Sequence record: NC_054927.1
Reading direction: 5' to 3' (one strand)
DNA: 64,000 nt
Origin: Escherichia phage vB_EcoM_Ozark
Shown piece by piece: positions 11,676 through 61,433 of the stretch. Position 1 is the first letter of the stretch. The number at the start of each line of letters is the position of its first letter. The notes under the pieces are model-generated. The model made no database searches. It was not told where the DNA came from and saw nothing but the letters and a program-made list of their open reading frames with translations. The translations under genes and the position numbers were made by a program.

Positions 11676-12278
11676 TTATAGATTAAATCCTTCAAAATCA
11701 AGAGTATAGATAGTATATGTTGAATACTTTTTATACTCATATCTATCTGCAATTCTAAATACACTTCCAGCTGGTATCATTACTTCTTGTTCATCTGAAA
11801 CTAATTCCATATTACGATAACGATGGCTATCCGGAAACTTAAAGTTTGGATTGTATTCTTTACAGCGTAGAGCTTTTATAGCATACTCCTGGAAATTGAA
11901 TACCATAGGAGCTTTGAATTCAAAAATAACTTGTGTGTTATACTCTAAACCGGAAGCAAAATGTAGAGCTATATTTTTATCATATGAAGCTGATACTACT
12001 TTATCAAATGTAATAATATCAATTTCTTGATTTAATACTTGCTTAGTCTCAGCTGGAACACCTCTCCAAAGAGGTTTATCGTTTGGTTCCAAACGAGATT
12101 TGATTATTTCATTTAACCAAGTATGGTCATCTGGTTTATTAGTAATACAATGAATTAAAAGTTCAATTTCAGATAAATTAAACCCTTCAGAAAGTAATTC
12201 TTCACGAATAGAAGCACGCACCGATGCATCCATTGATTTTATTTTAAAATCTTTTAGTTGCATTACTGAGTATTTCAT
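11676..12278 (-). CDS. modA: ADP-ribosyltransferase, Mod family (200 aa)
   Basis: R...STS...EQE motif (RGVP, SASYD, EQEVMIP); A/B assignment by size only. Confidence 0.65.
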   Translation of the reverse strand: MKYSVMQLKDFKIKSMDASVRASIREELLSEGFNLSEIELLIHCITNKPDDHTWLNEIIKSRLEPNDKPLWRGVPAETKQVLNQEIDIITFDKVVSASYDKNIALHFASGLEYNTQVIFEFKAPMVFNFQEYAIKALRCKEYNPNFKFPDSHRYRNMELVSDEQEVMIPAGSVFRIADRYEYKKYSTYTIYTLDFEGFNL

Positions 12279-12898
12279 TCAACTACCTCAATATCATAAA
12301 CTTTAAATGTTCCAAATGAATCGTGTAATTTTTCTTTTGAAATAGAAGTTATTCTATACTTTCCAATTGGAATCATCCATTCCTGTTCACGCACAATCAT
12401 CATTAAGTTATCAGTACGCTCTGAATCTAATCCATCAGTATCTTCATACGTGTACTTAAACTCAGTATTAGGAGAAGAAAGTATAATATCGCTGATATGG
12501 TCAGAATAATTAAAAGCTTTATTAGTTTTTAAGCGAAGTATTATTTTAGTAAAATATTCAGCGTAAGAAAAAGAACATGCTGTGAGTAAACTAGTAGTAA
12601 ATGAATCTACCCTGTTCGTTGAAAACACTTCTCCAACTTGTAAATCTTTAATAAGTTCTTCTGTTGATTTTGATATACCACGATATAACTGATAAGGTGA
12701 TTTAGTTAAATGCTTTTTAATGATTTTATTCAACTGCCGATGAAGAGCTTCATTCTTTTTGGCTTCCATACATTGCCAAAGAACAGACTGCTCAAAATCA
12801 GTAAATTTTTCACAGACCTTTTTATACATATCATATTGAAAATCAACGCTTTCAGCTTTTATAGATAACTGTTCAACATCTGCAAGATTAATAATCAT
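12275..12898 (-). CDS. modB: ADP-ribosyltransferase, Mod family (207 aa)
   Basis: paralog of 11676..12278 (YRGIS, STN, EQEWMIP). Confidence 0.65.
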   Translation of the reverse strand: MIINLADVEQLSIKAESVDFQYDMYKKVCEKFTDFEQSVLWQCMEAKKNEALHRQLNKIIKKHLTKSPYQLYRGISKSTEELIKDLQVGEVFSTNRVDSFTTSLLTACSFSYAEYFTKIILRLKTNKAFNYSDHISDIILSSPNTEFKYTYEDTDGLDSERTDNLMMIVREQEWMIPIGKYRITSISKEKLHDSFGTFKVYDIEVVE

Positions 12899-18086: not shown

Positions 18087-18719
18087 TTAACCTTTATTCA
18101 TAAAAGCATTAAAAATTTGATCGTCAATAGAAACTTTTACTTTAGGCTGTTCTTCAAACGGTAATTCATATCCACATATTACAATTTTGTGATCGATACC
18201 AAAATACACAGAAGCAATATTATTAATATTATTTTCAGTGAAATCTAAATCAACATCAATATCTTTTTGGCTAACGCTCAAAGGATAATTAATACGAATA
18301 ATTCGATTATCTTTAACAAAGATTCCACCGACATACTCTGTGCTGCGTTTAAAGTTTACACGTTTCCTAAATGAAAAATATTCAGGTTCTTTATGGGCTC
18401 GACTCATAGGGCTTAAAGTGTATTCCGAATATGAAATATCAAATCCTACACCTTCAATATGAGCCAAAGTGTCATGATTAAACCAATTATAATCGTATGC
18501 CAAATCCATTAAATTGTAATATGTGAAAGGCACCGGATTAACATCATATGTTGTACCTTTAAAATCTGCCCAGGCAACGATTTCGTTATCTTTAACAATT
18601 ACAAAAATTGTGCCAATAAGATATCCACGGTTATTTTCATCAGGCGTTATATTATAACATTGTGCATCAGGAAATTTACCGTATTTAAACGGTGGATTTT
18701 TGTGCATATAATAAATCAT
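18087..18719 (-). CDS. hypothetical protein (210 aa), shares C-terminus with neighbour
   Basis: C-terminal IDDQIFNAFMNKG. Confidence 0.45.
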   Translation of the reverse strand: MIYYMHKNPPFKYGKFPDAQCYNITPDENNRGYLIGTIFVIVKDNEIVAWADFKGTTYDVNPVPFTYYNLMDLAYDYNWFNHDTLAHIEGVGFDISYSEYTLSPMSRAHKEPEYFSFRKRVNFKRSTEYVGGIFVKDNRIIRINYPLSVSQKDIDVDLDFTENNINNIASVYFGIDHKIVICGYELPFEEQPKVKVSIDDQIFNAFMNKG

Positions 18720-58215: not shown

Positions 58216-58797
58216 CTAACCGAGCTTTTTAGTTAATCCATTCCAATGTTTTCTGCACAAAGAAACATAAATTTCATCACCAATACAGATTTGATTACCT
58301 TCTTTAACTGGTGTTCCATCTTCCATTAATCGAGCTGTCATAATAGCTTTTTTACCACAATGACAAACTGCTTTTAGTTCAATAAGTTTATCTGCAATCG
58401 CCAAAAGTTCTTTAGAACCTTCAAATAATTTTCCAGCGAAATCAGTCCTTAGCCCATAAGCCATAACAGGAACATTATATGTATCAACAATTCGGCTTAA
58501 TTGATGCACCTGTTCAGTTTTTAAAAACTGAGCTTCATCTACAAATACACAATGAATATCTTTTTGTGCTTCAGCCCATTTATAGAATTCAAAAATATCC
58601 ATATCATCCGTAATAATATTCGCTTCCTGTTTAATTCCAATGCGAGAAACGACTTCACAGACAGAATCGCGAGTATCAATAGCAGGCTTAAGAACTAATA
58701 CACCCATTCCGCGTTCTTTATAATTATGCGCAGCAGTCAAAAGAGAAGCAGATTTTCCAGCATTCATTGCTGCATAAGTAAAAATTAAACTCGCCAT
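58216..58797 (-). CDS. tk: thymidine kinase (193 aa)
   Basis: P-loop AMNAGKS; C-terminal Cys zinc ribbon. Confidence 0.9.
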   Translation of the reverse strand: MASLIFTYAAMNAGKSASLLTAAHNYKERGMGVLVLKPAIDTRDSVCEVVSRIGIKQEANIITDDMDIFEFYKWAEAQKDIHCVFVDEAQFLKTEQVHQLSRIVDTYNVPVMAYGLRTDFAGKLFEGSKELLAIADKLIELKAVCHCGKKAIMTARLMEDGTPVKEGNQICIGDEIYVSLCRKHWNGLTKKLG

Positions 58798-58806
58798 ATC
58801 ACCTTC

Positions 58807-58992
58807 TTAAAGCGTATTCACATAAGCTATTAATTCGTTTTCTTTCTTATCAAACCGATCAGCAAATTCTTCCTGTTGTTCGGGAGATAGCGGGCCGTAT
58901 TCATCATAAAAGGTGTTTGCTTCTGTATGCTCATCTAGAAGTTCATGGATAAGCTCAAACAATTTATCTTTTTGTTCTTTACTCAGACTCAT
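58807..58992 (-). CDS. hypothetical acidic protein (61 aa)
   Basis: ORF. Confidence 0.4.
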   Translation of the reverse strand: MSLSKEQKDKLFELIHELLDEHTEANTFYDEYGPLSPEQQEEFADRFDKKENELIAYVNTL

Positions 58993-59158
58993 ATATTAAT
59001 TTCCAGGAGTTTTAAAATAATTCGCTTTTGCTTAAATATTTCCATGGTTAAATGACCAGTATCTTTTTGACCGATTCCAATGGCAAAACCTTTATTGACA
59101 GCGAGTTCAATTAAATTATCAAGCTCACGTAACACTTCATATTGTAACTCAAAACTAT

Positions 59159-59386
59159 TCATTTTGGTTTACCTTCTTTAACGAAATCAGGATAAGGATA
59201 AAATCCTGAATAAAATCCTTCACCTTTATGATTGATGCATCCTTTATTAGAACAATAGCACCAATAATCGAAATCACAAGCCATTTCATCATTACATAAA
59301 GCAAAAACAACCGGCCATTCACACTTTTCGCAGTGGGCATTTTTAAGAATACTTGTTTGGCTCATAACCATGTAACCTTTAAGCAA
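59159..59386 (-). CDS. Cys-rich small protein (75 aa)
   Basis: CEKC...C...C..C.C...C motif. Confidence 0.4.
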   Translation of the reverse strand: MLKGYMVMSQTSILKNAHCEKCEWPVVFALCNDEMACDFDYWCYCSNKGCINHKGEGFYSGFYPYPDFVKEGKPK

Positions 59387-59574
59387 TATTCTTCTACGTG
59401 CTGTTTACGACCTTTCTTATCAATAAAGGTATATTCAACGAATGTTCCAATATAGTCTTTATCTACATCATGCGGACTATTAATTGGACATTTAGTACGG
59501 CAAATGCGTTCCCATTGACGAATAATTTCCACTTTGTTTTTAGGATCAAACGGATGCGGGTAATGTACTTTCAT
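59362..59574 (-). CDS. hypothetical protein (70 aa)
   Basis: ORF. Confidence 0.4.
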   Translation of the reverse strand: MKVHYPHPFDPKNKVEIIRQWERICRTKCPINSPHDVDKDYIGTFVEYTFIDKKGRKQHVEEYCLKVTWL

Positions 59575-60025
59575 AATCCACCACTATTAAATCAATATCA
59601 GGAGTAAACATGTCGATTAATTTAGAAACCTTATCCCAATCGCCGCCAGCAATACCGCAACCTATGCGTGGAATGTAAATTACTGGTTTAAACAAAAGGG
59701 TTTCTGCCTGTAGATTTAATTCTATCATGCAGTTTACTAAAGCACCATAATCAAGATTAGGACCCGGTTCATATTGCGTATACAGGTTATAGCATATACC
59801 AAATCCTGTAGGATTATGTTTAAAAACAATAGACATATCGCCTAATTTATCACGAGAACCGTACTCGGTAGTGGTTTTATCTATTTCCAAAATTTTAGGA
59901 TAGGCTCTTGCTAATTGACCTGCTACGCCGGAGCCCATTGTATGGAAGCAATTGCACCCGTGTGCAATAATATTACCTTGAAGAAATAGGGCGACAATAT
60001 CGCCCTTGATATATTTTACAATCAT
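59546..60025 (-). CDS. macrodomain protein (ADP-ribose binding/hydrolase-like), 159 aa
   Basis: GDIVALFLQGNIIAHGCNCFHTMGSGVAG and PRIGCGIAGGDW motifs typical of Macro domains. Confidence 0.6.
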   Translation of the reverse strand: MIVKYIKGDIVALFLQGNIIAHGCNCFHTMGSGVAGQLARAYPKILEIDKTTTEYGSRDKLGDMSIVFKHNPTGFGICYNLYTQYEPGPNLDYGALVNCMIELNLQAETLLFKPVIYIPRIGCGIAGGDWDKVSKLIDMFTPDIDLIVVDYESTLPASV

Positions 60026-60369
60026 CTAGTACTCAATCCTCGATTATAAGAATCTACTAAACGGTCAACCATTGAATGACAAGCGGCTTTATCTTTCTCC
60101 TCCGCAACTGAACATTCTAAGGTATTCCACTTTTTAGCATATCGTTTTAACAATGTATCATTTTTGTATCTGCTTGATTTATCTCTTTCTCCGTCTTTAT
60201 ATGCATATATTAATTTCTGCGCAAATTCAGCTTGGCATGCTTTATTTTTCCCACAATAATCCGCGGCAGTACGGTTTACATACTCTCTAATTTCAGTATA
60301 TGATGTATCTGCTGATGCAGAAGCAGAAAATGAAATTAATCCTATACATAAAACCAAAATTTTAGTCAT
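60022..60369 (-). CDS. secreted Cys-containing protein (115 aa, signal peptide)
   Basis: N-terminal signal peptide ending ASADT. Confidence 0.45.
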   Translation of the reverse strand: MTKILVLCIGLISFSASASADTSYTEIREYVNRTAADYCGKNKACQAEFAQKLIYAYKDGERDKSSRYKNDTLLKRYAKKWNTLECSVAEEKDKAACHSMVDRLVDSYNRGLSTR

Positions 60370-60907
60370 TTACTATTTCCAAAAGTTTATTATTTTTAAG
60401 GTAATTAGCCTTTTCTAGGACTTCAGAAGCATATTTAGAACCAGCTTTAACATTCCATCCCGAATTATAAGAGGATATTGCTTTTCTTATATCGCCCTTA
60501 TGTATATTTAACCAATAAGAAAGTTCAATGTACGCCCATGAAGCTGAATTGGATCGTTTATTCAACATTCTTTTTATTTCAGCATCGGTCATATTATAAC
60601 CAAGTTCCTTAACTCTTGCTCGCATAGTAGGCAAATAATTTTGGAACATTCCATAGGCGTGATGCTTTGGTTTAGATTTTAAATTAACTCCGCCAGAGCT
60701 TTCTTGCCATAAAATGGCTGCCATTATATGACCTAATCCGCTCTTGTGGATATTTTTATGTGTTTTATATTTTCCATCCTTAGAAAATTGTTCCCCGAAT
60801 TGATACGCGTAACGCATGTTATCGAGTTGGACATTACTGAAAGTATGCTCGGAGCTATGTGCCATCATTGAAATGGCCAATAGACCAGCGAGTAGTGCTT
60901 TTCTCAT
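60362..60907 (-). CDS. secreted lytic-transglycosylase-like protein (181 aa)
   Basis: signal peptide; WQESSGG...YGMFQN...YNSG resembles SLT catalytic motifs. Confidence 0.5.
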   Translation of the reverse strand: MRKALLAGLLAISMMAHSSEHTFSNVQLDNMRYAYQFGEQFSKDGKYKTHKNIHKSGLGHIMAAILWQESSGGVNLKSKPKHHAYGMFQNYLPTMRARVKELGYNMTDAEIKRMLNKRSNSASWAYIELSYWLNIHKGDIRKAISSYNSGWNVKAGSKYASEVLEKANYLKNNKLLEIVND

Positions 60908-60914
60908 GCTTACC

Positions 60915-61376
60915 TCATTGAGTTTTAATTACTGCTTTAGAAGCCTTTCCTGGTAAACGACGACTGTTAATAATTGCCATCCTACATTGAAGTGACGGGT
61001 CTTTGAACTTCTCATTAGGTTTACAAACTGTAAATCCAAGCCAAAGATTTCCATCTGTGATTTCTAAACGTCCAGGACGATATTCAACCCCATCAATAAA
61101 ATCCTCGTCAATGTCAGGACGCGGAGGCATACTCAGGAATTCATTAACTTCTAAAACATGGTCTTTTATTTTATGGAATAATTCAAAAACATATGTCTCA
61201 TCAATCTCCCGCTGAATTGCGCGATCAAGAAGATGCTGAGAATATTTTAGATGAAACGATGAGACCCCTGCTGCTTTTGATGCCTCACGAATCTCATTGT
61301 TAATTTGACGAAACTCCGACTCAAAGTGACGACGAAGCTTATTTCGACGGATAAAAACTTCTGTATTGATAGTCAT
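60915..61376 (-). CDS. regB: RegB endoribonuclease (153 aa)
   Basis: 153 aa; matches recalled T4 RegB. Confidence 0.8.
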   Translation of the reverse strand: MTINTEVFIRRNKLRRHFESEFRQINNEIREASKAAGVSSFHLKYSQHLLDRAIQREIDETYVFELFHKIKDHVLEVNEFLSMPPRPDIDEDFIDGVEYRPGRLEITDGNLWLGFTVCKPNEKFKDPSLQCRMAIINSRRLPGKASKAVIKTQ

Positions 61377-61403
61377 GTTGTTCTCCTCTTAACTGATAGA
61401 AAA

Positions 61404-61433
61404 ATTATACCACAGTCAAGAGGAAAAGTAAAC
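61404..61433 (-). promoter_or_regulatory. T4 early-type promoter upstream of regB (GTTTAC / TATAAT)
   Basis: fwd gtaaac 61428-61433, attata 61404-61409. Confidence 0.55.

Follow-up and report, generated by a model that had tools for sequence, protein, structure and literature searches.

What does a small, stand-alone macrodomain gene do for a T4-like phage? Such a gene lies on the minus strand of a 64,000-nucleotide (nt) stretch of Escherichia phage vB_EcoM_Ozark (NC_054927.1), referred to here as the window. A preliminary description, made from the letters of the stretch, had reported it as an open reading frame (ORF) of 159 amino acids (aa) with Macro motifs, and had offered two roles for its product: the regulation of phage-driven ADP-ribosylation or the reversal of a host modification. 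That the ORF is the named gene tk.4 went unnoticed there. Our analysis established the identity of the gene, the fold and class of its product, the conserved residues, the synteny and an exchange of alleles. Tk.4 of this T4-like phage is probably (at a probability of roughly 0.7) a small stand-alone macrodomain enzyme that serves as an 'orphan antitoxin' against host DarTG2.

Identity and class of the tk.4 product

The genome is that of a T4-like phage (Tequatrovirus), and over 3.5 kb around the ORF the window shares 98-99% identity with many Escherichia/Shigella Tequatroviruses. Near-identical Tequatrovirus records label the ORF as tk.4, 'macro domain protein' or 'phosphatase', and records with T4 names place regB, vs.1 and vs on one side of tk.4 and tk.3 on the other. 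The 159-aa ORF is the T4-type phage gene tk.4; as in T4, vs precedes it and tk.3 follows. Its product aligns with T4 Tk.4 without gaps over 155 residues, the full length (58% identity, E = 1e-70). The location between tk and regB given in the preliminary description was correct:

59546..60025, minus strand: tk.4 (adfM-type) coding sequence from the ORF list, 159 aa, ATG start, stand-alone macrodomain
58216..58797: tk
60915..61376: regB, on the upstream side of tk.4

Every Macro motif quoted for the ORF is present in the translation (KGDIV, residues 7-11; AHGCNC, 21-26; MGSGVAG, 30-36; PRIGCGIAGGDW, 119-130), and two of the checks that had been proposed, a profile search and a structure prediction, both upheld the macrodomain assignment. 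The Pfam Macro profile (PF01661, gathering cut-off 22 bits) matched residues 22-136 with 33.1 bits (E = 5.8e-8) from profile position 2 to 117, covering 116 of its 118 positions. An AlphaFold2 model generated from an alignment of 50 homologs reached a mean predicted local distance difference test score (pLDDT) of 94.9 and a predicted template modelling score of 0.89. Its six strands and five helices form a predicted three-layer alpha/beta/alpha fold, with a six-stranded sheet, that is superposable on solved macrodomains. Relatives of Tk.4 were found by tblastn in 2776 phage records. Taken together, the Macro match, the pLDDT of the model and the number of relatives are far beyond what chance would give.

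Tk.4 is a macrodomain of the TARG1/DarG/SCO6735 class. The top Foldseek matches in the PDB were the TARG1, Poa1p, BT1257 and DarG macrodomains, and the nearest structural neighbours are members of the TARG1/ALC1-like class, well apart from other macrodomain classes. Human TARG1/OARD1 and yeast Poa1p, both among the top fold matches, share with Tk.4 the minimal six-strand macrodomain. When the profile was compared with PDB sequences, BT1257 ranked first (8.6e-19), followed by TARG1 (5e-17), SCO6735 (2.6e-15), Poa1p (3.9e-14) and DarG (1e-11 to 1e-9); thus BT1257, TARG1 and SCO6735 are better sequence matches than DarG.

The best NCBIfam/PADLOC match, both of the window protein and of T4 Tk.4, was nevertheless DarG, through its macrodomain part alone. 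On the DarG model (NF048014) Tk.4 reached 27.8 bits, far short of the 250 set for the equivalog, with an alignment over positions 2-142 of 338, and by this profile match the C-terminal DarT-binding domain of DarG is absent from the 159-aa Tk.4. No darT gene lies beside tk.4, whose neighbours are vs and tk.3. Unlike the DarG of DarTG2 (M. tuberculosis, 5m3i; T. aquaticus, 5m31), which carries K80 in an FPTK motif, Tk.4 has Gln84 in LYTQ. Direct derivation from the DarG antitoxin, in the sense of membership of that family, was rejected on these grounds: Gln rather than Lys, no C-terminal domain and no neighbouring darT. As a single bacterial example, the relative P0096 (Pelagimonas) is also stand-alone and has housekeeping-type neighbours with no toxin nearby.

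A putative glutamine active site and a probable anti-DarT role

Fifteen residues are invariant among the 50 homologs: G8, H22, G23, N25, C26, G33, A35, D49, N80, Y82, Q84, P119, G122, G124 and W130. The elements of the putative active site are positioned as follows:

59918..59962, minus strand: loop 1 of the predicted ADP-ribose pocket, HGCNCFHTMGSGVAG, residues 22-36, with invariant residues including Asn25
59951..59953, minus strand: Asn25 codon, invariant, aligning with the Asn of DarG and of PhiKZ gp104
59774..59776, minus strand: Gln84 codon (CAA) in the NLYTQ motif, in the column of the catalytic Lys (TARG1 K84, DarG K80)
59636..59671, minus strand: loop 2, putatively diphosphate-binding, PRIGCGIAGGDW, residues 119-130, with P119, G122, G124 and W130 invariant

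Conservation of loop 1 (MGxGxA) and loop 2 (GxGxxGG) suggests that Tk.4 would bind ADP-ribose (ADPr). Gln84 is found in 50 of 50 homologs. The same column holds Lys in TARG1, in both DarG structures and in PhiKZ gp104, and Gln in BT1257 and T4 Tk.4. This placement was made by a hidden Markov model (HMM) alignment to TARG1 and by a MAFFT alignment with BT1257, TARG1, the two DarG structures and PhiKZ gp104, and both are consistent with the structure-based alignment of PMC9411070. An hhalign comparison of the Tk.4 family with PhiKZ gp104 showed a register shift near the catalytic motif, and the MAFFT and HMM alignments were relied on. In the HMM alignment, Ala126 stands at the position of Asp125, the second catalytic residue of TARG1, so that the K84/D125 dyad of TARG1 corresponds to Q84/A126 in Tk.4. 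With Gln at the catalytic-Lys position and the conserved Asn that positions it, Tk.4 belongs to the Gln-type subgroup.

The closest characterised counterparts are SCO6735 and BT1257, stand-alone Gln-type TARG1-like macrodomains that carry Gln at the catalytic-Lys position and match Tk.4 over the full length. The loop 2 sequences of SCO6735 (Streptomyces coelicolor; PRIGCGLAGGTW) and BT1257 (Bacteroides thetaiotaomicron; PRIGCGLAGGKW) are nearly identical to PRIGCGIAGGDW of the window, and SCO6735 shares with Tk.4 both the Gln and the PRIGCGLAGGxW loop. In SCO6735, where Gln85 replaces Lys, the Q85A protein is inactive, and N27S, the equivalent of Tk.4 N25, nearly abolishes activity (PMC9411070). 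The N23A change in the PhiKZ protein reduced its activity (PMC13309987). However, Tk.4 is phage-encoded and only ~27% identical to the two bacterial proteins. The SCO6735 'mobile loop' with Lys89 and Lys94, an insertion of some six residues following the Gln, is missing from Tk.4, which also has an invariant Gly23 in contrast to the 'specific' Val25 of SCO6735. The missing insertion and Gly23 mark Tk.4 as a distinct phage branch rather than a strict ortholog of SCO6735.

The T4 protein provides the link to function. Besides the locus, it shares with the window protein its length class (155 aa, versus 159 here), N25, Q84 and the loop 2 Gly residues, and the first ~37 residues, loop 1 included, are nearly identical; the 3' end of the window gene encodes four more residues. 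T4 lacking adfA and adfN was still resistant to DarTG2, and a further factor was predicted (PMC11825919). A November 2025 preprint (10.1101/2025.11.20.689424) then reported a transposon screen of T4 (HIDEN-SEQ) on E. coli carrying DarTG2, in which tk.4 was the single significant match. A clean deletion of tk.4 made T4 sensitive to DarTG2, and the authors renamed the gene adfM (anti-DarT factor Macrodomain). The A1pp-domain match of tk.4 orthologs had already been reported in a comparative paper of 2006 (PMC1524935). Because tk.4 is a named and long-annotated T4-family gene with a reported function in T4, the finding is already known. On the enzymatic side, SCO6735 removes DarT-made ADPr from DNA thymidine and protects Streptomyces from DarT (PMC9411070).

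There is also a precedent for a phage macrodomain of this kind. PhiKZ gp104, a stand-alone macrodomain from a chimallivirus, acts against DarTG2; in vitro it strips DNA of the ADPr added by DarT2, and it too was published as 'AdfM' (PMC13309987). Unlike Tk.4, it is a close relative of DarG (E = 9.4e-25 to 5m3i) with the catalytic Lys in FPTK, and the two proteins are only ~19-20% identical; they therefore fall into different macrodomain subfamilies. The name AdfM is thus used by two independent papers for the Lys-type PhiKZ gp104 and the Gln-type T4 Tk.4.

By orthology with the T4 gene, Tk.4 of the window is most likely an orphan antitoxin-like hydrolase that removes ADPr from thymidine in phage DNA. 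Host DarT2 would block replication by adding ADPr to thymidines of the phage's single-stranded DNA. Tk.4, presumably produced early from the regB-vs-tk.4 transcription unit, would hold the ADPr in its glycine-rich pocket and hydrolyse the thymidine-ribose bond, restoring the DNA. Catalysis would probably be of the SCO6735 type, with Gln84, held by Asn25, positioning the distal ribose and a water molecule, in contrast to DarG and TARG1, whose mechanism relies on Lys.

Several points weigh against this assignment. The preprint itself grades enzymatic removal of ADPr as no stronger than 'seems likely', and its genetics come from one study, with one DarTG2 system, in M9 glucose at 30 °C (10.1101/2025.11.20.689424). 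The two alleles are 58% identical and differ in loop 2 (GCGIAGGDW in the window, GAGIGKGNW in T4), so that equal specificity is an assumption. The Tk.4 family does not have the catalytic Lys of DarG, and since the longer mobile loop of SCO6735/BT1257, with its Lys, is missing as well, the SCO6735 mechanism may not transfer fully. Finally, SCO6735 can inhibit DarT by binding, and protection might therefore not be purely enzymatic.

The other role offered in the preliminary description was the regulation of phage ADP-ribosylation. As had been stated there, the genome encodes two Mod-family ADP-ribosyltransferases, which lie in the window:

11679..12278: ModA, 98% identical to T4
12278..12898: ModB, 96% identical to T4

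Tk.4 would, on this account, tune or erase the arginine-linked ADPr that the phage's own Alt, ModA and ModB place on RNA polymerase, S1, EF-Tu and other proteins. Alt and Mod enzymes make arginine-linked marks, macrodomains are general ADPr erasers and one macrodomain specific for arginine, MavL, exists. Nevertheless, the proven activity of the TARG1, DarG, SCO6735 and Poa1p class is on thymidine/uracil-linked and Asp/Glu-linked ADPr and not on arginine-linked ADPr. The distribution of the genes also differs: Tk.4-like proteins occur in 2776 phage records against 929 for Mod homologs, about threefold, and they include Pseudomonas, Vibrio, Acinetobacter, Aeromonas and Campylobacter phages, whereas Mod is overwhelmingly enterobacterial and T4-like, with none of these five genera among the ten commonest organism names of its matches. 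The phenotype of T4 tk.4 is, moreover, conditional on DarTG2 (10.1101/2025.11.20.689424). We consider a role on the phage's own marks highly improbable. Of the two proposals, reversal of a host modification is thus favoured by the DarTG2 sensitivity of the T4 tk.4 knockout, and regulation of phage ADP-ribosylation is disfavoured by the class substrates, the phage distribution and the DarTG2-specific phenotype. A stricter form, in which Tk.4 and the Mod enzymes are an obligate functional pair, was rejected on the phage-wide distribution (2776 versus 929 records).

The labels attached to the family raise a second alternative, that Tk.4 acts on small ADPr derivatives and not on DNA, as an ADP-ribose-1''-phosphate phosphatase, an O-acetyl-ADP-ribose deacetylase or a destroyer of ADPr-derived immune signals or toxins (TIR/SIR2 products). 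In RefSeq, T4 Tk.4 is a 'phosphatase; contains A1pp phosphatase motif', and 'phosphatase' is also the title of PHROG 335, although such names were transferred from the domain name. Poa1p, an ADP-ribose-1''-phosphate phosphatase, is among the top sequence and structure matches, and its HSCNC is matched by HGCNC of Tk.4, including the His mutated in PDB 6lfs. Tk.4 H22 aligns with Poa1p H23 and T29 with S30; the C-terminal half aligns poorly and F152 could not be placed. The sequence match to Poa1p thus lies mainly in the N-terminal half, whereas that to BT1257 and SCO6735 extends along the whole protein and takes in loop 2. The argument in PMC9503650 was also counted in favour of small derivatives. 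On the other side, the sole known phenotype of an ortholog is DarTG2 sensitivity, and DarT2 makes a DNA adduct. Activities on small derivatives and on DNA are not mutually exclusive, and the former may coexist with a DNA role; as a replacement for that role we regard it as unlikely.

Exchange of tk.4 between genera

Comparison of the window with other Tevenvirinae set tk.4 apart from the genes around it:

59513..60010, minus strand: divergent allele cassette, from sliding nucleotide identity to T4
Window versus T4, aa identity: RegB 100%, Vs.1 100%, Vs 100%, Tk.4 57%, Tk.3 93%, Tk 98%
Window versus JS98 (Dhakavirus), aa identity: RegB 58%, Vs.1 67%, Vs 45%, Tk.4 93%, Tk.3 74%, Tk 69%
T4 versus T6, aa identity: RegB 100%, Vs.1 no value, Vs 100%, Tk.4 99%, Tk.3 100%, Tk 99%

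Tk.4 is 57-58% identical to its T4 counterpart and 93% identical to that of JS98, while its neighbours are 93-100% identical to T4; tk.4 alone has therefore been exchanged between genera. Nucleotide identity to T4 falls from 90-100% in the flanks to 77-83% in the 30-nt bins at the cassette edges and to 33-73% in the interior. The result is a sharply bounded inter-genus cassette exchange, with a Dhakavirus-like tk.4 in a T4-like backbone, whose joints are the conserved 5' end of tk.4 and tk.3. The window-type allele (at least 90% identity) occurs in about 311 phage records and the T4 type in about 224. Loop 2 of the window allele is the family consensus, GCGIAGGDW, and GAGIGKGNW of T4 is the unusual one.

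Allele exchange bears on a third alternative, in which Tk.4 mainly binds or blocks DarT2 or another ADP-ribosyltransferase toxin, or acts on uracil-linked ADPr in RNA, so that hydrolysis of ADPr from DNA is not the key activity. Cassette-like exchange would be expected if a protein co-evolves with a variable partner, and the substrates of SCO6735, TARG1 and DarG extend to uracil-linked ADPr on RNA. The SCO6735 Q85A protein, although catalytically dead, inhibits DarT in vitro all the same, and does so more than dead DarG or TARG1 (PMC9411070). Yet the DarG profile match ends before the C-terminal toxin-binding domain, which Tk.4 does not have, and the PhiKZ AdfM acts enzymatically (PMC13309987). 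The strictly invariant residues of Tk.4 are those of the active site, which argues that catalysis is under selection and speaks against binding alone. We think this account doubtful, and continue to favour removal of ADPr from phage DNA.

A broader proposal may be put forward only tentatively, as unlikely taken as a whole. According to it, tk.4 is swapped between Tevenvirinae genera as a self-contained cassette whose alleles would have different target ranges, either different DarT2 variants, met by toxin binding plus hydrolysis, or other nucleic-acid ADP-ribosylating toxins, including those that make RNA uracil-ADPr. The Gln-type phage enzymes would then be an independently recruited anti-DarT solution, mechanistically separate from the Lys-type PhiKZ AdfM.

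Transcription, neighbouring genes and significance

The genes regB, vs.1, vs, tk.4, tk.3 and further ones adjoin or overlap, and a sequence resembling the T4 early promoter, whose consensus is well established and was used as a yardstick, precedes regB:

61404..61432, minus strand: T4-early-type promoter, GTTTAC, 17-nt spacer, TGTGGTATAAT, before regB
60022..60369, minus strand: vs (valyl-tRNA synthetase modifier), 115 aa, 100% identical to T4 Vs, upstream of tk.4 in the same transcription unit
60022..60025, minus strand: ATGA overlap of the vs stop and the tk.4 start (plus strand reads tcat), the ATG sharing TG-A with the stop
59546..59574, minus strand: overlap of the tk.4 3' end with the tk.3 start, 29 nt, compared with only 4 nt in T4

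This promoter is the likely source of a regB-vs.1-vs-tk.4-tk.3 transcript. A scan of the minus strand between these genes found no terminator-like sites, apart from one hairpin in a coding region. Promoter and terminator counts around tk.4 were not above the shuffled expectation, and the match near regB stands on its resemblance to the consensus. The early-type promoter and the abutting genes together make early co-transcription likely, which would suit an enzyme needed while phage DNA replicates.

Two further features of the unit were observed. The ribosome-binding site of regB, AAGAGGAGAA (within 61376..61432, minus strand), follows the promoter and contains GGAG, the motif cleaved by RegB. 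At 59988..60006 (minus strand), inside tk.4 codons 7-13 and ~20 nt past the start codon, the terminator scan registered, on both strands, a perfect-looking hairpin, AGGGCGAT-ATT-GTCGCCCT, with 8 pairs of which 5 are G-C. This hairpin could be due to chance or could be a translational element.

The ATGA overlap (60022-60025) is the coupling that the preliminary description had noted, and the 'secreted Cys protein' and small Cys-rich flanking ORFs that it mentioned can now be named. The former is Vs, which has a signal-like N-terminus, and the latter are Tk.3 (DUF7202) and an ORF matching the Pfam 'Phage zinc binding domain'. The N-terminus of Vs, MTKILVLCIGLISFSASASA/DTS, is signal-peptide-like, with a 12-residue hydropathy of 2.70 that exceeds that of rI, a surprising feature if, as stated for Vs, its partner is a cytoplasmic enzyme. 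According to the HIDEN-SEQ preprint, vs matters in minimal medium and its role is unknown (10.1101/2025.11.20.689424). Vs.1 (60362..60907, minus strand) also begins with a signal-like sequence, MRKALLAGLLAISMMAHS, and matches an SLT lytic-transglycosylase domain at 25.1 bits (cut-off 21.3). The T4 RefSeq record still has it as a 'hypothetical protein', and a RegB-domain label, found in one record, is wrong.

On the tk side, the segment 58807..59386 (minus strand) holds no counterpart of T4 tk.1. The following ORFs stand in its place:

58989..59162, minus strand: 57-aa ORF (RB32ORF110c)
59159..59386, minus strand: 75-aa Cys-rich 'Phage zinc binding domain' ORF (RB32ORF111c)

Tk.2 is just 54% identical to T4. 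With tk.1 missing, RB32-type ORFs present instead and Tk.2 this divergent, the whole tk-tk.4 interval is a variable segment.

Elsewhere in the window, 18087..18719 (minus strand) encodes a homolog of the product of T4 gene 61.2 that is 73% identical to it. T4 61.2 is what we take to be AdfA, the anti-DarTG1 factor of LeRoux 2022. The window homolog has NN rather than NH near the reportedly critical His of T4, a comparison in which the offset of the numbering is uncertain.

The way in which a large lytic phage overcomes, by means of an 'orphan antitoxin', a toxin-antitoxin defence that ADP-ribosylates DNA was described earlier for T4 itself. The addition made here is modest and consists of a second common allele, swapped in as a cassette, and of Gln in place of Lys in all Tk.4-type proteins. 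Both alleles are relevant to anyone extending the work on AdfM to allele specificity or catalytic mechanism.

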